Assembly (NCBI GenBank): GCA_017460045.1 | Contig: JAFUBU010000056.1 | Coordinates: 1-46,245, forward strand | From: Candidatus Saccharimonadota bacterium | GTDB lineage: Bacteria; Patescibacteriota; Saccharimonadia; Saccharimonadales; Saccharimonadaceae | Length of the DNA stretch: 46,245 nt | Direction: 5' to 3' | In this document: in pieces, positions 10,129 to 43,705 of the stretch | Layout: each line of letters opens with the position of its first letter | How positions within the stretch are numbered: the stretch's first letter is position 1 | The notes under the pieces: model-generated | What the model saw: only the letters and a program-made list of their open reading frames with translations | Database searches by the model: none | Told to the model about the DNA's origin: nothing | Made by a program: the position numbers and the translations under genes

Positions 10129-12114
10129 ATGGAAAAGAGTGGAGCGAAATCGATTTTGAAGGGTTTGAATCCGGCGCAAGTAGATGCGGCGGAGACGCTC
10201 GAAGGTCCGATTCTGATTTTGGCGGGGGCAGGCTCTGGTAAGACCAAGACCTTGACCGTCCGAATCGCGAATTTGATTGCGCACGGTGTACCGCCTAGAG
10301 ATATTTTGGCTGTTACTTTTACCAATAAAGCGGCGAAAGAAATGCGCAACCGTCTGTGGCGAATTTTGAACCCGGATACTCGCGAAGATGTCGCCGCGCC
10401 GAGACATTTTATGCCCTATATGGGGACGTTTCATGGGATTTGCGTCCGAATTTTACATATCGAATACGCCGCGGCGGGGCTTGACCCGAATTTTACAATT
10501 TACGATACCGAGGACCAGCTCGCGCTAATTAAACGCATCATGAAAGATTTACATATCGACAACAAGGCGGTTAAGCCGAAGCTGGTTCAGTCGATTATTT
10601 CGCAGTCGAAAAACGCCGGGCTTAGTCCGGAGGATTATGAGGCGACTTGTTACTATCCGAACCAACGAGCGGCGGCGAAGATTTATGCGCGCTACGAAGT
10701 CGAAAAACGCCGGGCTTCGGCGCTGGATTTTGACGATTTATTGCTCGAGACGGCGCGGCTATTTCGGGAGAACAAGCCGATACGCGAAAAGTGGCGCAAG
10801 CGATTTCAACATATTTTAGTCGACGAGTACCAGGACACTAACCATATTCAATATGAGCTAATTCGGATGTTAGTTAATGAGAAGCGAAATATTTGCGTCG
10901 TCGGGGACGACTGGCAATCGATTTATTCTTGGCGCGGAGCGGATTTTACTAACATTTTGAACTTCGAGCGAGATTTTCCGGGAGCAAAGGTCGTCAAGCT
11001 CGAGCAGAATTACCGCTCGACTGGAAATATTTTGAAGGCCTCGCAGAAAATTATTACCAAAAATAAGACGCGGACCGATAAGGAGCTCTTTACCGAGGCG
11101 GGAGACGGCGAGCCGGTCGAGATCGAGAGTTTGGCGGATGAAACGCAGGAAGCGGGGTATGTCGCGATGAAAATCCTCGAGATGAAACGAAAATATTCCG
11201 ACTTTGCGATTCTCTACCGGACCAACGCCCAATCTTACACATTTGAAAAAGCGTTTATTACGGCGAAAATTCCGTATAAAATCGTCGGCGGGGTACGTTT
11301 CTACGACCGGAAGGAGGTCAAAGACGTCCTCGCGATTTTGAAAGTATTAGTCAACCCGGCAGACAGGGTCGCGCTCGAGCGAGTCGTCGGGAACGTACTT
11401 TTGGGGATTGGAGCGGCGAGCCTGGCGAAAATCCTCGACCGACTTTCGGCGCTAGAGCTAGCGGGACGAGCGAACGAAAACCCGCTGACCGAGACGAGTA
11501 TTCTGGAAGGGCTGACGGCGAAAGCGCGCAACGCTTTTTCGCGGCTACAGAACTTCATTCGGACGACCGACCTCGAAAATACCTCGCCGGTCGAAATTAT
11601 CAATCGAGCGATTTCCTATTTTGAGTTTGCGAAGTTGCTCGACGACGGAACGCCGAGCGGTCAAGAGCGAATCGAAAACCTCTCGGTCCTCGCATCGAAC
11701 GCGGCGCCGTACGAGTCGCTCGAAGAGTTTTTAGCGGACGCGGCTTTGATGTCGTCGGCGGACGAAGAGACTTCGAAAAATTCGGTGACGCTAATGACGC
11801 TCCACGCGGCGAAGGGACTAGAATTTCCGGTCGTTTTTGTCGTCGGAATGGAAGACGGGTTATTCCCGAGCGCGAGATGCGTCGAGGACGAAAACGGGCT
11901 AGAGGAGGAGCGGCGGCTCGCCTACGTCGGGATGACGCGGGCGGAAGAAAAACTGTTTTTGACCTATGCGAAGTCGAGGTTTACATTCGGCTCGCGCGCC
12001 TATACTGAGCCGTCGCGATTTTTGCTCGAGCTCGGATACAATCCGTATGGGGCGAACGACTACGAAGATGACCCATTTCCAGATGACGTGCCAGTTTATA
12101 ACTATTCGTATTAG
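10129..12114 (+). CDS. pcrA: ATP-dependent DNA helicase PcrA/UvrD
   Basis: SF1 motifs LAGAGSGKT, TFTNKAA, VDEYQDTN, VGDDWQSIYSWRGA, LEQNYRS, MTLHAAKGLEF and EEERRLAYVGMTRA. Confidence 0.95.
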   Translation: MEKSGAKSILKGLNPAQVDAAETLEGPILILAGAGSGKTKTLTVRIANLIAHGVPPRDILAVTFTNKAAKEMRNRLWRILNPDTREDVAAPRHFMPYMGTFHGICVRILHIEYAAAGLDPNFTIYDTEDQLALIKRIMKDLHIDNKAVKPKLVQSIISQSKNAGLSPEDYEATCYYPNQRAAAKIYARYEVEKRRASALDFDDLLLETARLFRENKPIREKWRKRFQHILVDEYQDTNHIQYELIRMLVNEKRNICVVGDDWQSIYSWRGADFTNILNFERDFPGAKVVKLEQNYRSTGNILKASQKIITKNKTRTDKELFTEAGDGEPVEIESLADETQEAGYVAMKILEMKRKYSDFAILYRTNAQSYTFEKAFITAKIPYKIVGGVRFYDRKEVKDVLAILKVLVNPADRVALERVVGNVLLGIGAASLAKILDRLSALELAGRANENPLTETSILEGLTAKARNAFSRLQNFIRTTDLENTSPVEIINRAISYFEFAKLLDDGTPSGQERIENLSVLASNAAPYESLEEFLADAALMSSADEETSKNSVTLMTLHAAKGLEFPVVFVVGMEDGLFPSARCVEDENGLEEERRLAYVGMTRAEEKLFLTYAKSRFTFGSRAYTEPSRFLLELGYNPYGANDYEDDPFPDDVPVYNYSY

Positions 12115-12279
12115 AAGGCGAAATAAATACTTTTTGTCGCCCCAGTCTCACTCAAAAATGTCATACGCTGGACCGCCGGCGGAACCGCCCTTCGGGCGAA
12201 CCCGTCGGGGTCGTCAGGAATATACATTTTCTCGTTCGCAGGTGGAAATGTCGACAAAAAGTGTTTATTCTCGCCTTCT
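12113..12279. repeat. Long rod-like palindromic element between convergent pcrA and murA
   Basis: Imperfect ~27-bp terminal IR (12113-12139/12252-12279), inner stems, and apical hairpin CGCCC-TTC-GGGCG. Confidence 0.8.
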
Positions 12280-25051: not shown

Positions 25052-25098
25052 AAGAATATTATAGCATAGATTGGGAGAAAAGCTTCCTGATGCGGCAG

Positions 25099-25206
25099 GG
25101 GCTAAAGCAACTCAGTTTGCGAGTCTGACAGTAGCAAGAAGCAAATCTAAGGTTCGCGAACGCTACTCGCCGAATGGAGATGCCAAGGGCTAAAGCAACT
25201 CAGTTT
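25099..25206. repeat. 20-bp direct repeat
   Basis: GGGCTAAAGCAACTCAGTTT at 25099-25118 and 25187-25206. Confidence 0.75.
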
Positions 25207-25237
25207 ATGTGTCTGTTTCGCTTACGTCCGATGTCCG

Positions 25238-25427
25238 CCAGAAGAACTGCCGAGAGCTCCTTTTCCGAACGGGAGATTTCTCGCCCTTTGAAATTACAAC
25301 GCTCGGGCGGAGTCTCGCCCAAATTCCGCTTCGCTCCAGTTCGGGACTCAACTCCGCGAGCGTTGGTAATTTCTCGGGGAGAAATCTCTTTATTGTTCTG
25401 AAAAGGACTCCCGGCCAGTTCTTCTGG
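25238..25427. repeat. Long palindromic element, intergenic copy of the family inserted in sbcB
   Basis: The 133-bp core 25266-25398 aligns without gaps to 34815-34947 (15 differences by manual count). Imperfect outer IR CCAGAAGAACTG...CAGTTCTTCTGG. Confidence 0.9.
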
Positions 25428-25820: not shown

Positions 25821-25904
25821 ATGACACTTTTAGATGTAAGAATCTTGAGGGCATTTCGCCTTCGTCTTGTTGTAACTCGCAACAAGAAACCTCGCCGTAA
25901 GTAG
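25821..25904 (+). CDS. Putative 27-aa basic peptide
   Basis: Strong SD AAGGAGG 6 nt before the ATG; MTLLDVRILRAFRLRLVVTRNKKPRRK*. Confidence 0.45.
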   Translation: MTLLDVRILRAFRLRLVVTRNKKPRRK

Positions 25905-25960
25905 CGAGGCCCCTAACCTGCAACCAAGAAGTGATATAATACTAGATAATATCATTTCTT
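25881..25960 (-). ncRNA. Putative ~80-nt antisense small RNA
   Basis: Minus-strand TTGCAA (25990-25995)-17 bp-TATAAT (25967-25972), then a CCTCGC/GCGAGG hairpin with a TTTCTTGTT tail at 25881-25909. Confidence 0.4.
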
Positions 25961-26022
25961 GGTTGCATTATACGATAAATGGTTATGATTTGCAAGACTT
26001 TTTACAAGATTTTAACGAGAAG

Positions 26023-27651
26023 TTAAATTACGCGGGAGACTTCGTCGAGAGTGGTCTCCCCGCGGAGCGCGGCTAGTACGCCTTTCTGCTCGAGCGTCAG
26101 TAGCCCGGCCGCCTTCGCCGTATCTTCGATCGTCTTGGTATCTATATCAGTAATATCGCCACGAATAAAGGAGGCAATCTCGTCCGTAACAACTAGCTGC
26201 TCCATAATTACCGTCCGCCCTTTATACCCAAACGGGTATTCTTCCGACACGACCGGTCGGCAGAGCGTAATATCGCCGAGATTGATATCGTGGTCCCTAA
26301 GTACTCTTTCCGGGACTCCTTCAAAAACTTTTTCGATATAGCGTCGCGTCGCGTCGTCTGGTCGATACATCTCTTTATTTTCGGCCAATTTTCGGACCAA
26401 CCTCTGCGCCATGACGAGTCGAATCGAGCTCGAGAAAATCGGATTCTGGCCAATCATATCAATCATCCGCGAAAACGCCGCCGCGGTCGAGTTGGCATGG
26501 AACGAACTTAGGACTAAGTGGCCCGTAATCGAAGCCTGAATCGCCGTCCGCGCCGTATCGGTATCGCGAATCTCCCCAACCATAACGACGTCCGGGTCGA
26601 GACGTAGAACGCTCCGTAGCCCGTCCGCGAACGACGCGCCCCCGGTCGTATCAATCGGTATCTGCGAAATCCCGGTAATTCCATACTCAATCGGGTCTTC
26701 AAGCGTAATAATTTTCCGGTCGGTAGAGTTGAGTGCGTTTAATATTGAGTACAAGGTCGTCGACTTACCAGAGCCGGTCGGGCCGACCATCAAGACTAAC
26801 CCCCTCGGGTGGGAAATTACTTCGTCAATCTCCGCCCGCTCGTCTTTCGAGAGCCCGAGCAAATCGAGGTTTAATAAAGTCTCGTCAAAGTTGAAGAGTC
26901 GGAGAACCGCGTCTTGCCCGTACATCGTTGGGACCGTCTCAACGCGAATATTTAAAAGGTGCGAAGTCCCGTTTTGCTCAATATCTTTTTGCATATGCCC
27001 AGATTGAGCCGTCGTCGCGGCGGTCGAAATCCCCGCCCTCGACGAAAGCTCGCCCATAAAAATCCGGTAGCGGTCTTTATTGATGTCGGCGACCGGATGT
27101 AAAATCCCGTCGACGCGCATCCGAATCCGAATTTTATCGCGCATATTTTCAATATGAATATCCGACGCCCCGAGCTTGTCCGCCTGGTCTAGTAAGAAAT
27201 CGAAGACCTTATCCGTCCCGACTTCGTTCAGGGTCTTGGAGACCGACTCGAGCGTCTCCGAGTCGCCTTCTTTAGCAATCCGAATATCGTCATAAACCGT
27301 CTCGACCGGCGGGTCGTATCTTAGCATAAAAACTTTGTAAGCCGAATTCGAAATCAAGAAGAAATCGGTCCGCTCGCCCTGCTCTTCGTAATCTCGCCGG
27401 ATTTCCTGGATAACCGAGCGCGGGGTCTGGGTCGTAATCATAAACTGGTAATGCTCCGCTCCGCCGCCTTTTTGTAGAGGAATAATATAGTCCTTGTGCA
27501 TCTGCTCGACCGACAGAAGTTCGGATACTAGCGGGATTTCCCGCTCAAAACTTCGCGTATCAAGATACGGGAAGCCGAGAATTCTCGCCCGCGTCCTCGT
27601 CGAGTCCTCTTCATTATTCCGACGGTTTTGCTGGATTTCCGATTCGTCCAT
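26023..27651 (-). CDS. Type IV pilus/T2SS assembly ATPase (PilB/GspE family)
   Basis: ASDIHIE, RVDG.L, Walker A GPTGSGKSTT, TLEDPIEY, LRLDPDVVMVGEIRD, His box TGHLVLSSFH and GYKGR. Confidence 0.93.
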   Translation of the reverse strand: MDESEIQQNRRNNEEDSTRTRARILGFPYLDTRSFEREIPLVSELLSVEQMHKDYIIPLQKGGGAEHYQFMITTQTPRSVIQEIRRDYEEQGERTDFFLISNSAYKVFMLRYDPPVETVYDDIRIAKEGDSETLESVSKTLNEVGTDKVFDFLLDQADKLGASDIHIENMRDKIRIRMRVDGILHPVADINKDRYRIFMGELSSRAGISTAATTAQSGHMQKDIEQNGTSHLLNIRVETVPTMYGQDAVLRLFNFDETLLNLDLLGLSKDERAEIDEVISHPRGLVLMVGPTGSGKSTTLYSILNALNSTDRKIITLEDPIEYGITGISQIPIDTTGGASFADGLRSVLRLDPDVVMVGEIRDTDTARTAIQASITGHLVLSSFHANSTAAAFSRMIDMIGQNPIFSSSIRLVMAQRLVRKLAENKEMYRPDDATRRYIEKVFEGVPERVLRDHDINLGDITLCRPVVSEEYPFGYKGRTVIMEQLVVTDEIASFIRGDITDIDTKTIEDTAKAAGLLTLEQKGVLAALRGETTLDEVSRVI

Positions 27652-27721
27652 GATACTATTATAGCATAAGCAGAAAGCCTACGGACTAATTTTATTAAAA
27701 TTAACTCGTAGGCTTCTCGCT

Positions 27722-29839
27722 TTAGACTTTATTGATGACCGGAATCACAATCGGCGTATGGCCGGTCGCGTCGAAGAGAATATGCGTAACGTCTTCCTTG
27801 ATTTCGTCCTTGAGCATCTTCATTTCCGGGTCGACCGCCGCTGACTTGTCGATTTTCATCCGGAGGTAATGGCGGATTTTCCCGATTAGCTCTTCCGAAT
27901 TGTCGAGGTAGATAAACGCTCGCGAGATAATGTCCGGCGTCTTGACGAGCCTTCCGCTCTTCTTGTTAATCGTCAGGACGATAACGAAAATTCCCTCGCG
28001 CGAGATATGAATCCGATCTTTGACAACCGCCTCGTGGACTTGTTGGTCGGCATCGTCGTAGAGCAAATTCCCGGCGTGGACTCGCCCATTTTTGCGAATT
28101 AGTTTATCTTTTGTTAATTCTACAACGTCGCCATCGTCCATCAAGATAATTCGCTCGTGCGGTATCCCAATAACGTTTTCGGCCATCTCGGCGTTGTGTT
28201 GTAACATATAAAACTCGCCGTGGTAAGGGATATAGTTAAGCGGACGAATTCGCTCGACTAGCTCGACGTGGTCTTCGTAGTAAGCATGACCCGAAAGGTG
28301 GAGCGGGCCGATCGAGTTGAGATGGGTCTTGCCGTTTTGGATAACTTGCGACCCCTCGCGCAGCAGCCCGTCGACCGTCGAGACGACGTGGGGCTCGTTC
28401 CCCGGAATCGGGTTGGACGAGAAGACGACCATATCCGTCGGCTTGATCTTAATGTATTTGTGCGCCCCGGTTACCATTCGGTTAAGTACGGCGTTGAGCT
28501 CGCCTTGCGACCCGGTACAAATAATCGTAATCTTGTCGTCCGGAAGTTTGATGATGTCTTCCATCTTCATAATCGTATCTTTCGGGACTTTAATGCATTT
28601 CGCTCGAAGCGCAACTTCGACGTTGTTGATCATCGAAAAACCCGAGAATGCGACTTTCCGCCCACGCTTCGCCGCCTCTTGGAGCGCCAGCTCGATTCTA
28701 GTAATCTGGGACGAGAAGCAAGAGATAATAATCCGCCCCTGGCCGTAGTAATCCATGACCTTACCGAAGTTTTCGCCAATCTCGAATTCCGTATGAGGAT
28801 GTCGCCCCGGGGAGTCGATATTGGTCGACTCGTTAATCATCAAGTCGAACCCTTCATTTTTCGCAATCTCGTCAATCCGCTCGTAGTCGGACTGTTTGCC
28901 CATCGGCTGGCTTTCGTGACGCCAGTCGCCGGAGACGTAAACTACTCCGTTGGGCGTCCGGACGACAATCGCCGTATTCCCCGGGATAGAGTGTAGCATG
29001 TGGATAAACTCGATCGAAAGATGTTCCGAGACCTTGATAATTTCGTGTTTGAACGGGTCGACCGGGCAATAATTCATCTCGGGAATTTCTTCGAGCTCGG
29101 ACATCTGGCGCTTAACCATCCCGAGCGTAAAGTCCGTCCCGTAAATCGGGGTCGTCGGGTTGAAGAAAGGTAAAAGATGTTTACAAGCTCCGATATGGTC
29201 AAGGTGGGCGTGGGTAAAGCAAATCGCTTTGACCTTGTCGCGGTTGTCGGTTAAATATTTAATATCAGGGATTAGATAGTTTACTCCCGGGTAGTCATCT
29301 CCGGCAAATAATACCCCCATATCAATTACAATCATCTCAGATTTGTACTCGATAATCGTCATATTTTTACCAATCCCAAACTCCCCGACTCCGCCCATCG
29401 GAATAATCCGTACCGCCTCCGGGTCGGGCCGCGCTTTCTTAAGCATCGCGTTTGTAACCTGTCGACCGTCGTAGCCATTGTATTTCGACTTGTTGACCGG
29501 GATACCGATAATATGTTGCGTCGCCTGGGCGTTGACGTCTTGGGACAACATCCGTTGGTGGTGAACCATCTCGCCTTTGCGCGTCGAGACCGAAAGATTG
29601 ACCTTGAGCTTGGCCGCCTCTTCGGCCTTCTGGGCCTGCTGCTTTTGCTTCTTAGACTGCGGCTTTGGCTGTTTGGTCTTTTTCTTCTTTCCGACCAACT
29701 TCGCGTCTTTCCCGCCCGGCGCAAAATTGCTATTGAAGTTGCGTTTCTGCGACTCTTCAAAGCGTTTTCTAATATCTGGCAAACGTTCAGCACTCATTTT
29801 TAGTAAACGTTCGCGTCTTTCTTGTTCTTGTTCGTTCAT
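27722..29839 (-). CDS. rnj: Ribonuclease J with Lys/Gln-rich N-terminal extension
   Basis: GGVGEFGIGKNM, THAHLDHIG, HSIP, TGSQGE, PIPGNE, HLSGH and PYHGE; SD AAGGAG. Confidence 0.95.
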   Translation of the reverse strand: MNEQEQERRERLLKMSAERLPDIRKRFEESQKRNFNSNFAPGGKDAKLVGKKKKTKQPKPQSKKQKQQAQKAEEAAKLKVNLSVSTRKGEMVHHQRMLSQDVNAQATQHIIGIPVNKSKYNGYDGRQVTNAMLKKARPDPEAVRIIPMGGVGEFGIGKNMTIIEYKSEMIVIDMGVLFAGDDYPGVNYLIPDIKYLTDNRDKVKAICFTHAHLDHIGACKHLLPFFNPTTPIYGTDFTLGMVKRQMSELEEIPEMNYCPVDPFKHEIIKVSEHLSIEFIHMLHSIPGNTAIVVRTPNGVVYVSGDWRHESQPMGKQSDYERIDEIAKNEGFDLMINESTNIDSPGRHPHTEFEIGENFGKVMDYYGQGRIIISCFSSQITRIELALQEAAKRGRKVAFSGFSMINNVEVALRAKCIKVPKDTIMKMEDIIKLPDDKITIICTGSQGELNAVLNRMVTGAHKYIKIKPTDMVVFSSNPIPGNEPHVVSTVDGLLREGSQVIQNGKTHLNSIGPLHLSGHAYYEDHVELVERIRPLNYIPYHGEFYMLQHNAEMAENVIGIPHERIILMDDGDVVELTKDKLIRKNGRVHAGNLLYDDADQQVHEAVVKDRIHISREGIFVIVLTINKKSGRLVKTPDIISRAFIYLDNSEELIGKIRHYLRMKIDKSAAVDPEMKMLKDEIKEDVTHILFDATGHTPIVIPVINKV

Positions 29840-30000
29840 AAACTCCTTTTCTTAATTTTTGGCCGGCTCGCCACATAAGACCTAGCGCTTCCGGCGTTTC
29901 ATACCCATTGGTACAAGTATAAAAAGTATTTCTATTATATCAAATCGTTTTAGCTTTGTAAAGTCTAGCGAACAAGAAAAATTTATGATATAATTATAGT

Positions 30001-30118
30001 TGTAACCTGAGAGGGGCTCTGGTAACATTCGCGTTACTTGTTTGTTATACACCTCCTTTGATTCAAGTTAACATAGATGGAGCCCTCTCTAACCAGTACC
30101 TTAAAAGGAGATTAAGTA
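30001..30118 (+). promoter_or_regulatory. Structured ~120-nt 5' leader containing an anti-SD sequence
   Basis: TGATATAAT at about 29986-29994; stem 30009-30019/30080-30090; CTCCTTT (30053-30059) is complementary to SD AAAGGAG (30104-30110). Confidence 0.45.
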
Positions 30119-30574
30119 ATGAAAAAGAGAAGATTTATCCCGTTTTTGACAGTTTTGTTGCTCTGTTTATGCGCCTTGACCGTTTCCGCCGAGACGAAAT
30201 GTCCTTGCGGTTGTGGTTGTGCGAACTGTTGCAACAATTATTACCAACTGTGCCAGCCGCATGGCTATTGGACGACGGACGGCTACTTCTACGTCCCGGT
30301 AGAATATTATACTTCGTCCGGGAAACACATCTCATCCGGCTACTATCCGAAAGGAGAATTGCCGGAAGAGGCGTTGGGAGCCTCGGGTTATTACTCGAGT
30401 GCGCCGATGGTTAAGCCGGACAAAGTAGAGACCAAGGAGACTACTACGACCAAGACGACGAATACGACCTTTTCGGTCACTTTCCCGGAAGGCGTAGATT
30501 CGCAAATCGTCTATGTCCCCGGAGTCGGAACAGTCTTAGCCAACCGAAACGGCACTTTCCAAATACTAAAATAA
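30119..30574 (+). CDS. Secreted Cys-rich hypothetical protein
   Basis: Signal peptide MKKRRFIPFLTVLLLCLCALTVSA, then KCPCGCGCANCCNNYYQLC and a Thr-rich linker; SD AAGGAG; hairpin after the stop. Confidence 0.8.
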   Translation: MKKRRFIPFLTVLLLCLCALTVSAETKCPCGCGCANCCNNYYQLCQPHGYWTTDGYFYVPVEYYTSSGKHISSGYYPKGELPEEALGASGYYSSAPMVKPDKVETKETTTTKTTNTTFSVTFPEGVDSQIVYVPGVGTVLANRNGTFQILK

Positions 30575-30605
30575 TCCCCTCATCGGAAGTGCTTAATCCA
30601 AAACC

Positions 30606-30629
30606 GGGGCGCCTCCCTTTAGGCGCCCC
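30606..30629. terminator. Hairpin after the Cys-rich protein gene
   Basis: GGGGCGCCT-cccttt-AGGCGCCCC perfect 9-bp stem; the U-tract is poor on the + strand. Confidence 0.5.
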
Positions 30630-30639
30630 AAACTCTTAT

Positions 30640-30726
<87 letters not shown>

Positions 30727-30776
30727 CTCTGAGGTGGGCCCTTTTCTTAAAAGAAAAGGTCCCAACGCCAAAAGAA

Positions 30777-30819
30777 CTAGCTCTAAAATTAGGTCAGGCA
30801 AAGCCCGACCATAATTTTT
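30777..30819. repeat. Short REP-like hairpin repeat, copy 2
   Basis: CTAGCTCTAAAATTAGGTCAGGC-AAA-GCCCGACCATAATTTT; matches 10056-10096. Confidence 0.7.
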
Positions 30820-30830
30820 GTTTATGAATC

Positions 30831-31508
30831 CTAGTTTTCGGCTTCGCCGGGGTTGGCGATGGCGGAGAAGACGACGTGGTTAGTATAGCTCCCGGCCGGG
30901 AGAGAGTCGGTCAAATTTGCGCCAAAGGTAATGGTCGTTTTTTCGGCCGTACCGGCGCTATAGCAAGAAGCGTAATTCGTCGAGAGGTCGGAGGTACAAA
31001 GGCCAGTCTCAGAGCCATTTTCGGTAATTAGCCCGGCAGTACCAGTAGAGCTTGCGCCAATTGGATACCAGGTAGTTTCATTGCCTCGTCTAAAGCCCCA
31101 TTTATTAGCTTCGAGAGTAGAAGTATTCCCGCCGGTCGCGGCAATCGAGGTCGAAACATTAGCGTTGCTATGGGTCATACTGGTCGTCGAGTCGCTAGTA
31201 TAGGCTCTAAGAGTATAGCCAGTCGTATTGTTGGTCGAGACGTAGACGTTTACGGTCCCGGTAGCGGTCACGCCGCCGGAAGTCGGAGTAATCTCCGTTT
31301 CACCATTATAGGAAAGGGCGAGAGAGGAAGTATCGAGGGCTAATTCAATTACCGGCTCAACCTTGGCAGATAAGCTCGCGGTAGCCGTAGCGGCTTCGGT
31401 AGAAGCGGGAGGGAAAAGACAATTGTAGGCTAAGAAGCCCAGAAAGACTGCCACTAAAGCAACGGGCAGATATTTTATCACCCTAAGTTTTTGTTTTAGT
31501 TTAATCAT
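30831..31508 (-). CDS. Exported Thr/Ser-rich beta-sandwich surface protein (pilin/WxL-like)
   Basis: N-terminal hydrophobic segment, VYVSTNNTTGYTL, NKWGF and terminal strand LPAGSYTNHVVFSAIAN. Confidence 0.7.
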   Translation of the reverse strand: MIKLKQKLRVIKYLPVALVAVFLGFLAYNCLFPPASTEAATATASLSAKVEPVIELALDTSSLALSYNGETEITPTSGGVTATGTVNVYVSTNNTTGYTLRAYTSDSTTSMTHSNANVSTSIAATGGNTSTLEANKWGFRRGNETTWYPIGASSTGTAGLITENGSETGLCTSDLSTNYASCYSAGTAEKTTITFGANLTDSLPAGSYTNHVVFSAIANPGEAEN

Positions 31509-31585
31509 CTTAAAAATGTCCTTTAATAATATGACCTTCGATATGTCTCTATTATAGTACTTATGTTTATAAAAAGCAAGAGTTT

Positions 31586-33262
31586 TTAGACATTTTTGAA
31601 AAGAATTTTTTTCAATTTGGCTAAAATCGGCTTGGCCTCGGGAAGATTTAGGAAAGAACAGGAGACGACATAGGCGATAAACGAGACGAGCGAAATAAGT
31701 ACGAACTTCGGGACGGTAATAAAGACGGAGTCGTCGGTCGAGCGAAGCGGGAAGAACTTGACGAAGCTATAAGCGACGCAACCAGTAATTGTCGCCGCGA
31801 AGAGCATTTTGGCGAAGGCGACCCAGAACTCGCGGTTGAAGAGCTGATGGCTGGACTTAAAATGGAGCAAGCCGAGGAGAATAATAATTTCGAGTACGGC
31901 GCCGATAGACTGGGCCCAGCCGAGACCGTCCGGGCCAAAGCCCCAAATCGAAAAGAGGACGGCGAGGACGGTCGAGAGGCCGACCGCAATAATCGAAACG
32001 ATAAAGGGAGTCCTAGTATCCTGGCGAGCGTAGAAGCCGCGCGAGGCGATATGGAAAACCGAGCGAGCAAAAATCGCGAGGATAAGCGTCCCGAGGACGC
32101 TCGCAATAAGCGGGTCGCCGCCGTTTGTAATAAACGAAACGACGTAGCCGCGCGCGAAATAGGCGATCGTCGCGACGGGGAGCGAAATCCAGATAATCAT
32201 CCGTAGAGCGCGACGAAAGGTCGCGTAAAACTTCGACTCTTCCCCCTTGACGATTTCCTCGGTCAGCTGGGGAAAATAGGCGGTCGAGAGAGCGACGCCG
32301 ATTAAGTTAACCGGCATTTGGTGGAGCGAGGAGGCCTGTTGGTAGCTCCGGAGCGCACCCGCGCCCATCCGCGAGGAGAGGTTGGTATTGACGATACCGT
32401 TAACGTAGTCGATTCCCTGGTCGAGCGAGCGGGCGGGAAGAAGCTTTAAGACGCTCTTGAAACCATGGTTTTTCCAGTAGATTTTGAAGCGGTAGTCGAA
32501 GCCGAGGCCAATCAAGCCGACGAGCGAAATAATAACTTGGAGGACGGCGCCAAAGACGACGCCGAGCGCGACACCCATAATACCGCCGCCGAAAAGCTGG
32601 ACACCGAAGATATTGATACCGCCGGTAAACCAGGTAATACCAATCAAAATCCCGATATTGTAGACCGCCGGGGCGAGCGCGTAAAAGACGAAGCGCCCGA
32701 CCGCCTGTTGAATCGAGGCGAGGACGGTCGCGATAGACATCAAGAACGGGTTAATCGCGATAACGCGCATCATGTTAATCGCGAGAATCGTCCCCGGCTC
32801 GTCGAGACCCGGGCCGACAACATAGCGGACGAGCGGTTCGGCAAAAACCATCATCAAGATACTGGCGACAAAAGTAATCAGAGCGAAAAGGTTAATTAGG
32901 CTACTCGAAAGCTCCCAGGCGGATTTTTTGTTGCCCTTGACGAGGCGCTCGTTGAAAACCGGGATAAACGAGACCGCGAGCGCGCCGGAGGTTAAAATAA
33001 AGAACATAAAGTCGGGGATAGTAAACGCGGCGGTATAGGCGTCGATACCGGTCGGGTAGGTATCAAGATAGTAAGAGTTTAAGAGGCGGTCGCGGAAGAT
33101 ACCGAGGAGGGCGGAAACGAGCGTCGAAGAACTTAAAATTACCGCCGCGACTTTTATCGAGAGGCGAGAATTCGCAATCGCGACGACCGACTTAAACTTC
33201 GAGCTTCTGCGCTTTTTGGGCGCGTTCTTTGGGAGCTCCTGATCAACGACTTGACTATTCAT
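31586..33262 (-). CDS. murJ: Lipid II flippase MurJ (MviN)
   Basis: LGIFRDRLL, DAYTAAFTIPD, GALAVSFIPVF and RGFYARQDTRTP; many TM helices. Confidence 0.93.
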   Translation of the reverse strand: MNSQVVDQELPKNAPKKRRSSKFKSVVAIANSRLSIKVAAVILSSSTLVSALLGIFRDRLLNSYYLDTYPTGIDAYTAAFTIPDFMFFILTSGALAVSFIPVFNERLVKGNKKSAWELSSSLINLFALITFVASILMMVFAEPLVRYVVGPGLDEPGTILAINMMRVIAINPFLMSIATVLASIQQAVGRFVFYALAPAVYNIGILIGITWFTGGINIFGVQLFGGGIMGVALGVVFGAVLQVIISLVGLIGLGFDYRFKIYWKNHGFKSVLKLLPARSLDQGIDYVNGIVNTNLSSRMGAGALRSYQQASSLHQMPVNLIGVALSTAYFPQLTEEIVKGEESKFYATFRRALRMIIWISLPVATIAYFARGYVVSFITNGGDPLIASVLGTLILAIFARSVFHIASRGFYARQDTRTPFIVSIIAVGLSTVLAVLFSIWGFGPDGLGWAQSIGAVLEIIILLGLLHFKSSHQLFNREFWVAFAKMLFAATITGCVAYSFVKFFPLRSTDDSVFITVPKFVLISLVSFIAYVVSCSFLNLPEAKPILAKLKKILFKNV

Positions 33263-33299
33263 CTCATATTATTATAGCACAATGTGTTATAATTGTTCT

Positions 33300-33935
33300 A
33301 TGGTTGGGCGTAAAAAAACACGTGCAGAAATTATCATCCGGACCTCTTGTATCGCTATTTTTATAAATCTAATTTTAGTCGGGATAAAGATTTTTATCGG
33401 ACTAGTTTCAAGCTCGATTGCGGTAGTACTCGACGGGCTGAACAACTTGACCGACTCAATTTCCCTAGTCGTAACCATCATCGGCGCGAAACTGTCGCGA
33501 AAATATGAACGTGTTGAATATTTTACAACAATCGTGATTGCGGCGATGGTCTTGATAGCAGGGACTTTGGCGGGACATGAGGCATTCGAAAAAATCCTAC
33601 GGCCGGAGCATACCGAGTTCTCGGTTGCTGCGCTGGTTGCGATTGGGTTAGCGGTAGTCGCAAAGCTCTTACTAGGTCGCTACGTCGGACGCGTAGGAGA
33701 GAAGGTCGACTCTAGTAGTCTAAAGGCTATTAGCAAAGATTCCCTACTAGACGTAATCCTATCCTTCGGGACGCTAGTCGGGGCGGGGCTAAGCTATTAT
33801 TTTGGAATAGAGATCGGGGGATTTATCGGTCTTTTGATTTCGATTTTTATCGTCGCCATGGGCATCAATATCATGATAGAGGCAATCCGGCTCTTCGTCA
33901 AAGCGCCATCTAGGAAAAAACGACGCAAACGCTAG
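33300..33935 (+). CDS. Cation diffusion facilitator family transporter (TM domain only)
   Basis: SSSIAVVLDGLNNLTD signature, ERVEY and SLKAISKDSLLD. Start set to ATG 33300, 6 nt after TGTTATAAT. Confidence 0.85.
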   Translation: MVGRKKTRAEIIIRTSCIAIFINLILVGIKIFIGLVSSSIAVVLDGLNNLTDSISLVVTIIGAKLSRKYERVEYFTTIVIAAMVLIAGTLAGHEAFEKILRPEHTEFSVAALVAIGLAVVAKLLLGRYVGRVGEKVDSSSLKAISKDSLLDVILSFGTLVGAGLSYYFGIEIGGFIGLLISIFIVAMGINIMIEAIRLFVKAPSRKKRRKR

Positions 33936-33940
33936 CGCGA

Positions 33941-34165
33941 CTATTTGCGGTTAAAGAGGACGAGGCCAAGCGGAAGGGCCATCAAGACCAAAATAGAAAT
34001 ACCGCGAGTCAACGAGGCGGCGTCGGGGCTGATGAAAATCAGGGTGTAAGCGTGGAAAGAAAGCAGGATAAAAACCGGGACGGCGACGATAACGAAGCCG
34101 AGCGAAAGTAGCGTCAAAACGCGATTTGGCTGTTTAACCCTCTTTAATGCCTTCTTTGTACTCAT
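33941..34165 (-). CDS. Small two-TM membrane protein
   Basis: 74 aa with two hydrophobic helices; TGGTATAAT 6 nt upstream. Confidence 0.7.
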   Translation of the reverse strand: MSTKKALKRVKQPNRVLTLLSLGFVIVAVPVFILLSFHAYTLIFISPDAASLTRGISILVLMALPLGLVLFNRK

Positions 34166-34238
34166 GCTCGCATTATACCATAGATTTGATATTTTTTCAA
34201 TAGTATTTTATAGCATAAGCTCGTTGAGCGGATGTTAG

Positions 34239-35792
34239 CTAATAGTCGACGCTAGCAAGAGACTGGGCCCAGAGGAGAAGCTCCTCGACGAGGCTCGGAT
34301 CGACGTCGGGGCGGTTCGAGAGAGCTTGTAGCTCCTTCTCGAAAGAGACCGACTGCCGATTTAGTCGAGCGAGACGGTATTTTTCCCAATCTTTTTGCTC
34401 TTCTTCGGAGAGAGTATCGGGGAAATTCTTAGCCTTATAGTGGAGGAGGAGCGGTTCGAGGCGGGGATCGGTAAACTCGGGGTGGAGATCGGCGAGCTGG
34501 TTTTTAGTCGCCGCGCGGACGAGACCGCAAAGGTCGCGATCCTGATCGCCCAGGAAGCCGTCGTAGAGGGCGGACTCGGGGTCGGGCGCCTCCGGGAACT
34601 CCGGCTTGGCCTCGTCAATAGCGCGCGCCATTTCGGCGAACTCGGGATGTTTCAAAAGCGCCTTGAGGTTTTTCTCGACCGTATCTTTGTCGAGGCCGAT
34701 CCTCCGCCAGCCATCGTTTTTCTCCAAAACGCCGAGCGGCGCAACCGCCGGACAACGGTTGTAGCGAAGTTCTTTGAGCTTGGGATACAGGTGGAATGTT
34801 GCTGAAGGGTCTTGCGAACGGGAGATTTCTCGCCCTTCAAAATCACAACACTCGGTCGGACCTTCGCCCAAATTCCGCTTCGCTACAGTTCGGGACTCAG
34901 GCCCGCGAGTGTTAGTGATTTCTCGGGGAGAAATCTCTTTATTGTTCGCAAGGCCCTTCAGCCAACATTCCTCCGGGTCATATCTCAAATCCCACACCAA
35001 AATGTTGCCGGTCTTGCTCGGGGCGATAGGAAAAGCGACGGTAGTCTTGTCGAACTCGCTCGAGTAGCGGCCCGAGGCGTAGACAAAGGGCTTTGGCCGG
35101 TCGAGGTTGATGAGGCGCTGGACGAGCTTTTTGTCGCGTAGCTTAAAGAGGTAGTTATAGAGGTCGGGTTGGTGGGTCTTGATGAGCCTCGTAACTTCGA
35201 TGAGCGCGACGACGTCGGCGAGGGCGTCGTGGGCGTGTTCATGCTCGATACCGTTTAGCTTCGTAATCAACTCGAGGCGATTGGTCTTGACCTCGACCAC
35301 GATTTTTTCGCCGTCTTTCTCGATTTCCTTTTCCTGGGTCGGCCAGTTAATCCCCTCCGGCCTCAAGGCCCTTGTCAAACGGACAACGTCGAGCAAGTCC
35401 CAGCGGCTACGGCCGTCCTTCCATTGCCACTCGTAGGGGTCGTAAAAATTGCGCCAGAAGAGATGTCTCATAAATTCATCGTCGAAGCGGACGGAGTTGT
35501 AGCCAAGGGCGCAAGTCCCCGGCGTAAAAATCTCGTCGGTCACATAGCGGCAGAACTCGGCTTCAGAAAGGCCGTCTTGTCTAGTCTGTTGGGGGGTAAT
35601 TTTCGTTACGGCGATAGCGCCAGGAGAAGGCAAAGTATCGTCGGCTAGCTCGACCAGCAGATTAACCGGCTCGCCGAGCGGGTTTAACTCGAGGTCGGTA
35701 CGTTGTCCGGCGAATTGCATAATCCGATCTTCGCGCGGGGAAAGGCCCGAAGTTTCGAGGTCGTAGAAGAAAAAACTATGGGGATCGTTCAT
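34239..35792 (-). CDS. sbcB: Exodeoxyribonuclease I carrying an in-frame palindromic insert
   Basis: DEDDh motifs FYDLETSG, GYNSVRFDDE and HAHDALADV, plus SRWDLLD, LRPEGINWP, YNRCP and LYDGF. Confidence 0.93.
   Translation of the reverse strand: MNDPHSFFFYDLETSGLSPREDRIMQFAGQRTDLELNPLGEPVNLLVELADDTLPSPGAIAVTKITPQQTRQDGLSEAEFCRYVTDEIFTPGTCALGYNSVRFDDEFMRHLFWRNFYDPYEWQWKDGRSRWDLLDVVRLTRALRPEGINWPTQEKEIEKDGEKIVVEVKTNRLELITKLNGIEHEHAHDALADVVALIEVTRLIKTHQPDLYNYLFKLRDKKLVQRLINLDRPKPFVYASGRYSSEFDKTTVAFPIAPSKTGNILVWDLRYDPEECWLKGLANNKEISPREITNTRGPESRTVAKRNLGEGPTECCDFEGREISRSQDPSATFHLYPKLKELRYNRCPAVAPLGVLEKNDGWRRIGLDKDTVEKNLKALLKHPEFAEMARAIDEAKPEFPEAPDPESALYDGFLGDQDRDLCGLVRAATKNQLADLHPEFTDPRLEPLLLHYKAKNFPDTLSEEEQKDWEKYRLARLNRQSVSFEKELQALSNRPDVDPSLVEELLLWAQSLASVDY
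34793..34971. repeat. Palindromic element inside the sbcB coding sequence
   Basis: Imperfect terminal IR 34793-34819/34944-34971; core 34815-34947 is homologous to intergenic 25266-25398; reading frame preserved. Confidence 0.9.
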
Positions 35793-35830
35793 ATAATTAT
35801 TATACCATCATCTTGTACCGCAACCAAGAA

Positions 35831-35985
35831 AAGAGGAGTATCTTTATTTGCGAGTCTGGTTTCACTCACGTCCGATTCTCAATCGATTTTTCGGGCAAGG
35901 CACCCTCATCTGAGAGGGCCCGCCTTGCGAAAAATCTCTTCGAATCGGGTTCGTTCAAGGCCTCGCAAATAAAGATACTCCTCTT
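35831..35985. repeat. Long rod-like palindromic element upstream of the sbcB promoter
   Basis: Perfect 24-bp terminal IR AAGAGGAGTATCTTTATTTGCGAG (35831-35854/35962-35985); nested stems CCGATTC/GAATCGG, GATTTTTCG/CGAAAAATC, GCAAGGC/GCCTTGC and CCCTC/GAGGG. Confidence 0.9.
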
Positions 35986-36006
35986 CTTTAGCGACCTGAT
36001 AAGCTT

Positions 36007-36031
36007 AAACCCCCGCGCCGAAGCGCGAGGG
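36007..36031 (-). terminator. Probable intrinsic terminator
   Basis: Minus strand CCCTCGCGC-TTCG-GCGCGGGGG-TTT just after the stop at 36036. Confidence 0.6.
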
Positions 36032-36035
36032 TAAT

Positions 36036-36422
36036 TTAATTTATTTTTTTGGGTCCATGTCCATGCTTGATATGCCAATTTAAGATAAAGGCAAACCATT
36101 TATGAAACATGGTTGCGACGGAGTATAAAATTACTCCGTATGCAATGGCGAAGTAAATGGTTAAAAACCATTTCCAGCCGGCAGTATCAAACCGGATGCC
36201 CGGCTCGATGATGTTGATGTACTCTAAGTTCCAAAGCGCCGCAAGCAAGGCGGCGGCTACGAGTGCGCCAACTACGGCTGCGCCGATAATAATCGGCCTG
36301 CCTTCGCCGTCCTGCAGTTTTTTGTTTTTTTCGTCATACGTAAAATTCGTAATGGCGAAATATAAAACTAAGACTGCGGGTACTAAGAGCGCAATTGCGC
36401 TCAGAATTTTTATTGTCATCAT
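36036..36422 (-). CDS. Hypothetical three-TM membrane protein
   Basis: Hydrophobic ORF. SD AGGAGG precedes MMTIKIL at 36422, which is preferred over 36476. Confidence 0.7.
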   Translation of the reverse strand: MMTIKILSAIALLVPAVLVLYFAITNFTYDEKNKKLQDGEGRPIIIGAAVVGALVAAALLAALWNLEYINIIEPGIRFDTAGWKWFLTIYFAIAYGVILYSVATMFHKWFAFILNWHIKHGHGPKKIN

Positions 36423-36546
36423 ATCTTCTCCCCTCCTATGATGGTGCGTGTCCTCCGGAAGTCCTATTACCTCCATTGAACATTACCTATATTATACCAC
36501 ACCTTTGCGAAAAAAGCAATAGTTTTTTGGCAATAACAGGGGTAGG

Positions 36547-37257
36547 CTAATTGCTCGAGGAGCTATAATAGGCGGCGTAGAGGCGTTCCATGATTTCGTT
36601 GGACTCTTTACCGAGTTTAATCATTTTTTCGTCATCGAACGGGAGGACGACGAACTTCAACGGGGAGTTGGTCCCGCCGCAGATTTCTTGGTCTTCACCG
36701 TAGGCGAGCTCGCCGGGGATAGTAATTTCGCGGACGCCGCCGAGTTTCATGCCAATCACGCCCTGGTTCCAGCCTTCGATCAGGCCGTTCGCGGCGTAAA
36801 TCGGAGCTTTGAGCGAGGTCGGGTTTTCGGCGTCGTCAAACGAAGAGTCGAAGATCGACTCGTCGGCGCACCAGCCGATGTAGTAGGCGAGATAATCGGT
36901 ATCGTCAGCTTTAAGCTCGCGGCCGGTCCCCTCCTTTAGGTCGGTAGTTTTAAGCCCCTCCGAGTTGGCGGTCGTAGCATTATAACTTTTTACCTGAGAC
37001 TTATAGCCCTTAAAATCGTTGAAGTACTTCGACGAGAGCGTCTCGGCGTATTTGGAAATTTCGTCGGACTTCTTTTGGTACTCTTCTTCGATAGCGGTCA
37101 ACTCGGAATTGTCGCCGTCGGTCGAGTTAGTATTGGAATTTTTATTAGAGAGGACGATAGCGATATAGGTCGCGACAAACGAAAATACCATCAATACCGC
37201 AATAATAATAAATAGAATACGTTGCCTCCAGCTAGTCTTTAGAATATCTTGGTCCAT
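36547..37257 (-). CDS. Membrane-anchored FKBP-type peptidyl-prolyl isomerase
   Basis: N-terminal TM helix; FKBP motifs DLKEGTG, FDSS and LIEGWNQGVIGMKLGGVREITIPGELAYG. Confidence 0.9.
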   Translation of the reverse strand: MDQDILKTSWRQRILFIIIAVLMVFSFVATYIAIVLSNKNSNTNSTDGDNSELTAIEEEYQKKSDEISKYAETLSSKYFNDFKGYKSQVKSYNATTANSEGLKTTDLKEGTGRELKADDTDYLAYYIGWCADESIFDSSFDDAENPTSLKAPIYAANGLIEGWNQGVIGMKLGGVREITIPGELAYGEDQEICGGTNSPLKFVVLPFDDEKMIKLGKESNEIMERLYAAYYSSSSN

Positions 37258-39722
37258 TAAATTATTTCTCCGCTTACGGCCTTACAGGTCTCTTTAGTAA
37301 TTTTGTACATTATATCAGAAACCTCATCGCCGTTCAAGGTACGTTCGGGGTTGTTCAAGAGAAGATGGAAACTCAGATTCTTGGTTTTTTCAAGGTTTTC
37401 TTTAGGTTCGTAAATGGAAACTGGCTCGATTTTGTAAATCAGCCCAGTCTTTACGAGACCACGGTCGAGGGAGTCGTAGACTTTTTCGTACGGAGTATCT
37501 TGGGAGACCTTGATAGTTAAGTCGCGGCTAACGGACGGGAAGCGAGAGAAGCGGAGGTTTTTCGTCTTATTCTCAAGCGAGCGGTCGAGGTAATCGTCGA
37601 GCGTAATTTCGAAGTAGGCGACCGGGCCTTCTAGCTTGAACTTCCTGAGTAAGCTGTTTGCAAGCTGGCTCGTCCCGCACGGGTGTTGCGGGTCCTGCTG
37701 CGCACATCCCCATGAATCGTCGCTTGGGGACCCCGCACCCCAAGCTCCGCTTCTGGGGGCCCCGTGCGCATCACCCGCACCAGCCCGGCGAGGGTCACCA
37801 GCTTGCAATCCTAATTCCTTCATTAACTCAACATAGTAGGCCTTCGCCTTATAGTAGTCGCCAGTGACGGCGAGGGCAAGGTTGGTCTTCATGACCGGGA
37901 CGCCTTCGTTGTTTAGACCGTCGGATTTTTTGGCGACTTGGTTGATTTCGTAGAGGGCAAAATCTTTATAGCCGGCTTTTTGATTTTCTTGGACTTTTTC
38001 AAGAAGGCTCGGAGCGAGCGACTGGCGGAAACATTGGAGCTCCGGGGAAATCGAGTTGACGATTTCGTAAGAGTCTTTCGGGTCTTCGCCGAATTTTTCC
38101 TGGAGCGCTTTCGAGACGAAAGAATAGGTCAAGATTTCGTGGGCGTTTAAGCGGTCCGAAAGAATATCGCGGATACGATTTTTCAAAATACGCATCGGGT
38201 CGTCTCTCGCGCCGACGAAAGGACGAGTCGGGAAAGAGAGCGGGATATTATCGTAGCCGAGGAGGCGGCCGACCTCTTCGATGATGTCTTCTTTAATGTG
38301 TAAGTCCGTGCGCCAATAGGGGACTTTTACGGAGAGACCCTTTGCCCCGAGTTTCTCGCACATAAGCCCGACATTGGCGAGCGTCCTGACGATTAATTCT
38401 TCGGAGTAGTCGGTACCGAGGAGAGAGTTGATGTCGGCAACGGAAACCTCGATTGGAGGGATTTCGATCGGGGCGGGGTAGTAGTCGACGACCTCTAGCG
38501 GCTCGACGCCGAGCTCCTCAACCGCCTCGGAGAGAACGGCGAGAGTCTGGCCGGCGGGCTGGCCCTTAGTGAAGCGAGTAACCGCCTCGGAGAAGATGCC
38601 ATGTTTCATCTGGGTCTTGCGGAGATGATAAAGCGAGAAAGTCGCAGACTCGAGGATGATACAATTCGTCGTCTCGTCAATCGCGGTACTAGCTCCGCCC
38701 ATAGCGCCGGCGAGGGCGACCGGAGTATCGTTGCTAGTAATTAAGATATCATTTTCGTCGCATTCGATAGTTTTACCGTCGAGGAGCTCGAGCTTTTCGC
38801 CGTTTTTGGCGGCGCGGACGATAATTTTCGGCTCTTTAGCACCGCCTACTCTTACGAACTTTTCGTAGTCGAAAGCGTGGAGCGGCTGGCCGGTCTTTAG
38901 CATCAAGATATTAGTCAAGTCGACAATCGGAGAAATCGGGCGCATATCGGCCTTAATTAGGAAGACGTCGTCTTTAGTGAAATACTTTTCGCGCGGGGCG
39001 TCGGCAAAATCGACGACGGCGCAGGAGTAGCGAGGGCAAAGGTCCGAATCTATTATCTCGACGCTCAAGGCTAAAGAACCTCGAGGACGGGAGGCCTCTC
39101 GTCCTTCAAGCCCGCTCGGCTCTTCGAATTTGATACCTAGTATCCCGGCTACTTCGCGAGCGAAGCCAACGAGGCCGAAGCAATCGGGGCGGTGGGTAAG
39201 GGATTTGTTTTCGATATCGAGAATAATGTCGTTTAAGTCGAAGACTTCGGCGAAGGAAGCGCCGGGCTTGACCCCTGGCATCGCCGGGTCGATTTCAATA
39301 ATTCCCTCGTGGTCTTCGCCAAGGGCAAGCTCGTCGGCGGCGGCGAGCATCCCGCTACTCTCATAGCCACGGAGCTTCCTTGAGCCAATTTCAAACGGCT
39401 CGTCCGTCTCGAAAGTCGCCGGGACGACACAGCCAGGGGCGAGCCAAGCGGCGAACATATCGGCATGGACATTCGGAGCGCCACAGACGACCTGGACTAA
39501 ATCTTTCGAGCCGCAGTCGATTTGGCAAAGATGGAGATGGGTATCGGGAATAGGCTCACAGGAGACGACCTTGACGATTTTGACGCCCTTGTACTTTTCG
39601 CTCCAATCTTCCGAACCTTCGACCTCGACGAGACGAGCGCCAATGAGGCGAATAAGCTCCTCGGTCGAGAGGTCTTTCGGAATATCGACGTATTTTTTAA
39701 TTTCATTCAAACTAATTTTCAT
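37257..39722 (-). CDS. pheT: Phenylalanine-tRNA ligase beta subunit carrying an in-frame palindromic segment
   Basis: VVCGAPNV, LTHRPDC, GQPLHAFD, R.DL...DIIEEVGRLLGYDNI and SRFPSVSRDL; follows pheS. Confidence 0.95.
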   Translation of the reverse strand: MKISLNEIKKYVDIPKDLSTEELIRLIGARLVEVEGSEDWSEKYKGVKIVKVVSCEPIPDTHLHLCQIDCGSKDLVQVVCGAPNVHADMFAAWLAPGCVVPATFETDEPFEIGSRKLRGYESSGMLAAADELALGEDHEGIIEIDPAMPGVKPGASFAEVFDLNDIILDIENKSLTHRPDCFGLVGFAREVAGILGIKFEEPSGLEGREASRPRGSLALSVEIIDSDLCPRYSCAVVDFADAPREKYFTKDDVFLIKADMRPISPIVDLTNILMLKTGQPLHAFDYEKFVRVGGAKEPKIIVRAAKNGEKLELLDGKTIECDENDILITSNDTPVALAGAMGGASTAIDETTNCIILESATFSLYHLRKTQMKHGIFSEAVTRFTKGQPAGQTLAVLSEAVEELGVEPLEVVDYYPAPIEIPPIEVSVADINSLLGTDYSEELIVRTLANVGLMCEKLGAKGLSVKVPYWRTDLHIKEDIIEEVGRLLGYDNIPLSFPTRPFVGARDDPMRILKNRIRDILSDRLNAHEILTYSFVSKALQEKFGEDPKDSYEIVNSISPELQCFRQSLAPSLLEKVQENQKAGYKDFALYEINQVAKKSDGLNNEGVPVMKTNLALAVTGDYYKAKAYYVELMKELGLQAGDPRRAGAGDAHGAPRSGAWGAGSPSDDSWGCAQQDPQHPCGTSQLANSLLRKFKLEGPVAYFEITLDDYLDRSLENKTKNLRFSRFPSVSRDLTIKVSQDTPYEKVYDSLDRGLVKTGLIYKIEPVSIYEPKENLEKTKNLSFHLLLNNPERTLNGDEVSDIMYKITKETCKAVSGEII
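37658..37808. repeat. Palindromic element inside the pheT coding sequence
   Basis: Terminal IR TTGCAAGCTGG/CCAGCTTGCAA; nested stems TGCGGGT/ACCCGCA, TGCGCAC/GTGCGCA and GCTTGGGG/CCCCAAGC. Confidence 0.85.
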
Positions 39723-43685: not shown

Positions 43686-43705
43686 AAGCGCGCTATGGCG
43701 CGCTT
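43686..43705. other. Perfect hairpin over the stop codon, candidate DGR target-recognition stem-loop
   Basis: AAGCGCGC-TATG-GCGCGCTT (8-bp stem, 4-nt loop) directly after the SVRCV-encoding sequence. Confidence 0.55.

Follow-up and report, generated by a model that had tools for sequence, protein, structure and literature searches.

The exodeoxyribonuclease I gene (sbcB) of a gut member of the Saccharibacteria carries an in-frame insert that we identify, with high confidence, as one copy of a palindromic repeat, probably translated. The explanation that fits our data best, and which we hold with somewhat more conviction than doubt, is that of a selfish, non-autonomous palindrome located in frame in a length-variable loop of ExoI and likely spread by strand-specific copying of single-stranded host DNA, with no enzyme of its own. 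The repeat family to which the insert belongs is called family A here, and further hairpin families are called B to G. 'The window' denotes the whole stretch of DNA that was analysed (46,245 nucleotides), and the features located in it are collected in Table 1.

Table 1. Positions of sbcB and of the palindromic elements in the window.
Feature	Position	Strand	Remarks
sbcB, exodeoxyribonuclease I, host gene	34239..35792	-	517 aa, intact ORF without internal stop
Family-A hairpin in frame in sbcB	34793..34971	-	About residues 275-333; from fold and repeat match
Conserved 132-bp core of family A	34816..34947	-	Common to all full-length copies; 120-bp, 133-bp and apical-insertion variants exist
5' arm of the sbcB copy, 24 nt	34948..34971	-	Specific to this locus; a single base some 15 nt away from the core is unpaired
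3' arm of the sbcB copy, 23 nt	34793..34815	-	Pairs only with the 5' arm of the sbcB copy
Family-C hairpin, intergenic, upstream of sbcB	35831..35985	-	24-bp perfect arms
Family-D hairpin in frame in pheT	37658..37808	-	In relatives, family D in mnmA and der
Decayed family-A 3' end (scar) in frame in pheT	about 39061..39107	-	Scar recognised by eye
Intergenic family-A copy	25238..25427	-	Core 25267-25398, 29-nt arms; within a composite repeat block
Family-B hairpin, intergenic, between uvrD-like and murA-like genes	12113..12279	-	Gene names by eye

The palindrome in the exonuclease I gene

In a profile search, the sbcB product scored 479 bits against the NCBIfam exodeoxyribonuclease I model (cut-off 260), and its closest solved structures are 4RG8 and E. 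coli ExoI. The residues D11, E13, D104, H188 and D193, which we take to be catalytic, are invariant in an alignment of 15 orthologs. An open frame and intact ExoI motifs had been claimed in the first-pass annotation, and both are confirmed by these results together with the uninterrupted ORF. Comparison with the genome G020 shows purifying selection on either side of the insert, with pN/pS values of 0.13/0.66 and 0.20/0.74, which lends indirect support to exonuclease activity of the protein with its insert. Compared with sbcB of another strain, X1, 12 of the 14 differences lie at third codon positions (high-depth contigs among the matches listed). A second, non-palindromic insertion was observed at residues 150-170 (about 35290-35340), where a subset of orthologs carries a charged two-strand extension.

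The insert folds into one long imperfect stem with a calculated RNA free energy of -107.1 kcal/mol (z -13.8), and none of 200 shuffled sequences folded as well. When folded as DNA, it reached a z score of -9.8. The earlier description of a stretch of about 60 residues encoded by a 179-bp hairpin was right as to the hairpin and its frame, but the net gain is smaller, about 54-56 residues, because the outer arms overlap host codons. In the window, 67 residues lie between the DLRY and LKEL motifs, compared to 11-13 in the shortest orthologs, which defines the insert by alignment. The similarity of a 133-bp core to a non-coding copy at 25266-25398, put at about 89%, was reproduced (88.7% identity over 133 bp; 88% over 136 bp in a second comparison). 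Searches with the inserted peptide returned no NCBIfam match (E 1e-12; E 0.001 inside sbcB) and no Pfam match (E 0.01).

It is extremely improbable that the assembler joined the repeat into sbcB. The window is contig C94 of an 842-kb metagenome assembly that consists of 94 contigs, contains two der genes and has 3.7% contamination, and among the matches listed no X1 contig spans the whole insert. However, X1, which differs by about 1% and whose run may be related to the source sample, provides one contig over the left junction (34668-34844, 1 difference) and one over the right junction (34919-35450, 6 differences). The two contigs extend about 50 bases past their junctions, and no joint skipping the insert was found among the listed matches. 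Additionally, G020 carries family A at the same sbcB codon, the arms are unique and complementary, and every coding copy keeps an open frame, all of which argue against an artefact. Runs X2-X4 yielded only short pieces from relatives. The two der genes (C75:796-2394 and C67:2139-3461) encode proteins that are 84-92% identical and differ in their insert states, and C57 and C59 hold two overlapping rlmD-like pieces; these duplicates suggest a strain mixture in the bin or paralogs. A separate observation concerns window 43693-46185 (minus strand) and contigs C73, C84, C30 and C91: a Fib_succ_major/Lcl-domain gene has a duplicated C-terminal region and is one of many similar gene ends.

For the comparison of the insertion site, sbcB orthologs were searched in 151 genomes of the genus and the best 30 loci were aligned, a set that is biased to long loops. 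Across these loci, the stretch from DLRY to LKEL is 11-69 residues long. Strong hairpins (z <= -7) were present in this stretch at 8 of the 30 loci, namely the window, the family-A relative in G020, four loci with reversed family-B-like inserts and two others. Many long loops (42-63 residues) do not fold into a hairpin, so the site also grows by other routes. The family-A peptide without a palindrome was absent from all 30 orthologs examined. In an empty ortholog, the stretch aligns to residues 268-298 of E. coli ExoI, of which residues 277-295 are described as highly flexible and variable in length and hold Tyr284, which contacts a bulge of the single-stranded DNA (PMC3675492). The tyrosine aligned to Tyr284 directly follows the insert in the window gene. 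An AlphaFold model gave pLDDT values below 50 over residues 280-333; the model is modest (mean pLDDT 67, pTM 0.45, 15 sequences), and the low confidence of the insert partly reflects missing homologs. Judging from the conservation of the frame, it seems likely that the insert is translated and adds a floppy or disordered loop that the enzyme tolerates.

Family A and hairpin turnover at shared protein loops

In the genome of the window, family A is found in frame in sbcB, mnmA, tatD (with a tatD-family score under its cut-off), dnaX and two der genes. The presence of the element in five genes besides sbcB, and of orthologs without the peptide, substantiates the earlier proposal that a repeat has become protein-coding as in the Rickettsia palindromic elements (RPE). 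Family A is also intergenic on contig C91 as well as in the window, and fragments occur at contig ends. In relatives, its in-frame hosts are sbcB, rsmD (two copies), dnaX (three), der, pheT (two), obgE, lepA and valS (names by eye). Among 368 other genomes of the genus, BLAST detected the family in 10, with long matches in five, and a pattern search of named records covering 185,579 species returned 9 loci, all of them from Candidatus Saccharibacteria. Family A is confined to about six species. The composite block around the intergenic copy (window 25060-25450) is made up of arms and half-elements from families A, C and E, varies in X1, and recurs at the ends of contigs C81, C91, C48, C27, C71, C24, C31, C50 and C53.

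All coding family-A copies are free of stops, both in the window genome (6/6) and in relatives (12/12, one of them cut by a contig end), and all 18 begin in one common frame. In seven of them the middle is read in a shifted frame, which is restored by a compensating -1/+1 pair. Among the full-length intergenic copies, two of five contain a stop in that reading. This bears on the possibility that the hairpin is removed before the protein is made, as a self-splicing or protein-spliced intron or by ribosomal bypassing, so that ExoI would lack the insert. In favour of such a route, the long stem brings both junctions together. On the other hand, the frame is kept without stops in each of the 18 coding copies, those with compensating frameshifts included, and in the scars; in tatD and der the arms extend over conserved codons of the host gene; family G occurs in either orientation with respect to genes; and no Rfam intron family was matched. 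We therefore consider removal very improbable.

The family-A core measures 120-133 bp, or more with apical additions, and its bulges are fixed. Its pairing is conserved, with 98.5% of the cells paired and two-sided changes in 26 of 45 pairs. Shuffled controls gave 12.9 such pairs (0/500 as good) and slid controls 1-6, although relatedness among copies inflates such counts. The variable core columns are distributed 12/15/17 over codon positions 1/2/3, and pS was about 2.2-2.6 times pN in four of six core comparisons; this excess mildly suggests filtering at the protein level or a transition bias.

Beyond the core, each family-A copy has arms of 21-38 bp, which the first-pass annotation had missed as a locus-specific feature. 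The outer 11 nt of an arm pair best with their own partner in 18 of 19 copies (8.9 vs 4.5 matches). A single unpaired base, in most cases 10-17 nt away from the core, is seen by eye on the 5' arm of 12 of the 19 copies. An arm covers conserved host codons on one side in tatD, der site 1, dnaX of G353 and pheT of G185, which is expected if one arm templates the other. Assuming that the arms were always an inverted copy of the host flank would account for these four cases only, and we keep this idea as a partial explanation. It does not account for all arms, since those at sbcB, mnmA and der site 2 are unlike the empty orthologous codons and some arms travel with the core: the intergenic copy of the window shares its arms with the copy on C91. 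In another family, identical arms recur at different loci (der of L137; sbcB of L007 and L009). No direct target duplication was seen by eye at sbcB, tatD, mnmA or der in comparison with orthologs of other species. Nor did an exactly matching empty allele turn up within the same species. Partial tandem duplications of family-A ends beside a full copy add more in-frame peptide in L081 (dnaX) and L046 (pheT). Small side-hairpin modules are found in stems of families A, B and D (C16:1635-1881, C59:3121-3365, C91:1955-2176, L055 and L092); the elements are nested mosaics, with one such module common to several families.

A census of hairpins in the window genome yielded families of 15, 10, 9, 8, 6 and 5 copies besides singletons, and families A, B, C and E have a similar total length of 160-190 bp. 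Matches to HMMs identified tyrS, valS, an rsmD-like and an rlmD-like gene as in-frame hosts of family B, gatA, obgE and a recX-like gene as hosts of family C, and topA as a further in-frame hairpin host. Family G was recognised by eye in eight further long ORFs. A third palindrome had been noted just upstream of sbcB; it is real but belongs to a different family, C. In addition to the palindromes listed at first pass, pheT in the window holds two elements, a family-D hairpin and a decayed family-A end, both in frame. At window 35824-35966 and 25729-25838, X1 contigs are joined through different sequence, so strains differ in the family-C hairpin upstream of sbcB and in the stretch upstream of the intergenic family-A copy. 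Rfam covariance models, run over window 24500-38500, detected only a tRNA and one chance-level match elsewhere, and nothing at the repeats.

Pairwise identities, used in place of a core tree that was mostly unresolved, showed that cores resemble copies of the same genome more than copies at the same locus in relatives. The sbcB core is 94% identical to that in tatD, 92% to mnmA and 89% to the intergenic copy, but 71% to the sbcB copy of G020; similarly, the dnaX core is 90% identical to that in der, compared to 75-79% for orthologous dnaX copies. The same loops are found in various states. At the tatD site, six genomes show a full family-A copy, arms without core, a 3' half, a decayed small hairpin, another family or a short loop; the arms without core, in G020, carry compensatory changes. 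Across genomes, the mnmA site holds A, D, D or is empty, the rsmD site holds B, A, A, a fragment or is empty, and the der linker carries many unrelated hairpins and scars. The pheT site at which the window has a decayed family-A end is occupied by full family-A copies in two relatives. In X1, two joints (depth 18, sides of 104 and 29) place a full family-A copy there, so that this strain probably holds one; the joints come from metagenome contigs and one side is short. Scars and half-copies point to turnover, in which hairpin families likely replace one another at the same loops. Such turnover involving several families had not been recognised at first pass.

Strand polarity and the search for a mobiliser

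The orientation of the elements, likewise absent from the first-pass annotation, was compared with the GC skew of the contig and the third-position skew of nearby genes. BLAST matches of families A (14/14), B (11/11), C (13/13), D (2/2), E (20/20) and G (18/18) all had one orientation relative to the skew; these 78/78 matches include fragments, split matches and several per contig, the reference orientation was chosen per family, and they are not independent copies. In these six families, orientation follows the C-rich chromosome strand, even in genes that lie on the other strand. Family F obeyed the rule in only 11 or 12 of 16 matches. For family G, 9 of the 10 matches inside long ORFs fall in genes encoded on the G-rich strand, which read them in reverse. 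At L007-L010, too, the sbcB genes that hold reversed B-like inserts are encoded on the G-rich strand. Stop codons do not explain the orientation bias, since the sbcB core has two antisense frames free of them. One intergenic copy in a relative (L034) runs against the rule with a local skew of +0.18 on the sense strand, and at three more copies the local skew is near zero. A local skew halo around the elements was not seen, the values being -0.32 to -0.38 in all six bins.

The C-rich strand of the window genome carries two thirds of the coding length together with rpoB, tuf, fusA and rpsL, and dnaA-dnaN and gyrBA lie on the G-rich strand. We rejected as unproven the identification of the C-rich strand with the leading strand, given the location of dnaA-dnaN and gyrBA and an unflipped skew in relatives. 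The third-position skew has the same sign on both sides of dnaA in 4/4 relatives, and with no flip there, the tie of the skew to replication is itself unproven. In three relatives, the sign of the skew was constant along contigs of 554, 385 and 363 kb (17/17, 10/10 and 10/10 samples). Contigs G059:C3, G068:C3, G123:C1 and G211:C4 (L178-L230) have one strand that is C-rich throughout, and gene direction flips in G068 and G123.

Strict polarity and strong covariation could also be expected of hairpins that the host selects, the genes being merely hosts. They might be mRNA structures, or polar DNA signals that serve replication, segregation or the loading of proteins onto one strand. The similar length of families A, B, C and E would suit such a role, as would the observation that the C-rich-side (sense) strand folds better in most copies. 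However, sites are gained, lost and swapped between close species, and probably between strains, family A is restricted to its few species, and Rfam gave no match. Family G, which is mostly antisense in its mRNAs, further argues against a role as mRNA structure. We regard host-selected signals as improbable.

The main rival holds that a dedicated enzyme, either an unrecognised single-strand HUH nuclease or a reverse transcriptase (RT) of the type found in diversity-generating retroelements (DGR), mobilises the repeats in trans as MITE- or REPIN-like elements; the insert would still be translated and tolerated. Enzymes of the IS200/IS605 type act on the lagging-strand template and leave a strand bias (PMC6006769), and the conserved core with its fixed bulges resembles a protein-binding site. 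However, Y1_Tnp was absent from the window genome and from all six family-A carriers (24 of 369 genomes of the genus have it), and RAYT was found in none of five carriers, in searches of genomes that are 84-97% complete. Twenty Y1 loci were ordinary IS200-type elements without these repeats, apart from one 34-bp match. The best GIY-YIG match in the window genome was a UvrC-like gene (by eye), and no linked enzyme was seen. The family-A pattern had no locus in viral or metagenome contigs, and BLAST gave no match in phages or plasmids. As the 94-contig assembly breaks at these repeats, a mobilising gene could be missing from it.

For an RT, more can be said on both sides. The window genome has three reverse-transcriptase matches with Avd-like neighbours, which suggests several DGRs, and repeats match many target-gene ends; one family-A copy lies in a hairpin right after a target-like gene end on C91. 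Yet variation in family A is not A-biased (A 0.105, G 0.132, C 0.128, T 0.145), a repeat lies within 250 bp of just 1 of the 16 target-like gene ends found by motif (the motif search missed some targets), and G355 carries family A with no RT match (86% complete). Taken together, we think it rather unlikely that a dedicated enzyme moves the repeats in trans.

Template switching is described to perfect quasi-palindromes, with a strand bias in E. coli (PMC6357072). In the explanation that we prefer, that of a palindrome copied by host processes, the hairpin would fold while one chromosome strand is single-stranded, and recombination or template switching by a polymerase would copy it to new locations or onto old scars. 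Switching from arm to arm would keep the arms complementary and could extend the stem into host codons. Only copies with an open frame in a tolerant loop would survive, and internal deletion would leave short in-frame scars. SbcD scored over its cut-off in none of 61 genomes of the genus. SbcCD destroys or removes long hairpins, and its absence would then explain why hairpins are tolerated. Concerning the enzyme-free copying route taken by itself, we are evenly divided.

Relation to known repeats and significance

The closest parallel is found in the RPE, which are summarised (after Ogata et al. 2000, 2002) as dispersed stem-loops of 100-150 bp that lie between genes and, in frame, within conserved ones; a guanylate kinase remains active despite carrying an RPE insert (PMC2229807, PMC10969869, PMC1779305). 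According to these summaries, the two systems share stem-loops of 100-180 bp, several families per genome, intergenic and in-frame locations in conserved genes with pheT as a host in both, a small host-dependent genome and no known mobiliser; transposases have been hypothesised for the spread of RPE without support (PMC2229807). They differ in phylum and in their ends, as RPE have 12-bp terminal inverted repeats (TIRs; PMC2229807, Table 1) and the elements described here have locus-specific arms of 21-38 bp. Arms specific to each locus, strand-tied orientation and the replacement of families at one loop were not encountered in the parts of the RPE literature consulted. Family A appears to work like RPE and not to be a member of them, as peptide profiles and the pattern search gave no sequence link and its loci come from Saccharibacteria only.

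Other systems share single traits with these repeats. REP/REPIN-RAYT and IS200/IS605 systems, as presented in PMC6006769, likewise involve hairpin DNA and an expected bias for one single-stranded strand, but REPs are mostly extragenic and short, whereas the copies here are long and often coding and their carriers lack RAYT or Y1. The coding palindromes of Nematomorpha mitochondria (PMC6649704) have both arms coding and kept complementary, with template switching proposed and dynamic gain and loss, as here; those repeats are reported as perfect, host-derived and without a shared core, in contrast to the imperfect, conserved core dispersed among genes in our case. Bacterial MITEs are characterised by constant TIRs, TA termini and A+T richness (PMC2229807), whereas the outer arms here share 4.5 of 11 nt, which is chance, only the inner core ends are common, and the sbcB copy has GG..CC termini and a loop region of 53% G+C. 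For the Microgenomates order UBA1400, a whole chromosome with one C-rich strand has been described and unidirectional replication proposed (PMC7143001). Similar one-strand C-richness is present in the three relatives examined here, although UBA1400 is a different CPR lineage; a repeat family tied to the C-rich strand, as found here, was not met for UBA1400 in the consulted part of that paper. A search of mainly open-access literature found no published description of such repeats in Saccharibacteria or CPR.

How palindromic repeats enter coding sequence has been a question since RPE were described. The Saccharibacteria offer hundreds of related genomes in which a given loop can be followed through its filled, scarred, swapped and empty states, and the strand rule provides a handle on the mechanism. 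Dozens of such repeats in the core genes of supposedly streamlined CPR genomes affect annotation, alignment and assembly. The ExoI copy lends itself to direct assay, as the insert adjoins the aromatic residue aligned with Tyr284, which in the E. coli enzyme is reported to wedge into the single-stranded DNA bulge (PMC3675492). A more far-reaching reading, which we regard as possible but doubtful, is that these are enzyme-free selfish hairpins of gut Saccharibacteria, copied on one strand of a chromosome whose strands are asymmetric over the whole genome. Template switching would let them restore their basal stems, and the same protein loops would pass through rounds of insertion, internal deletion and replacement by another family at strain-level speed. 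If this is true, they would be a marker of an unusual, perhaps one-directional mode of replication, and the copy in the DNA-contacting loop of ExoI might modulate an enzyme whose substrate, single-stranded DNA, is what the copying relies on. The hairpins would then also keep supplying core enzymes with new peptide loops.
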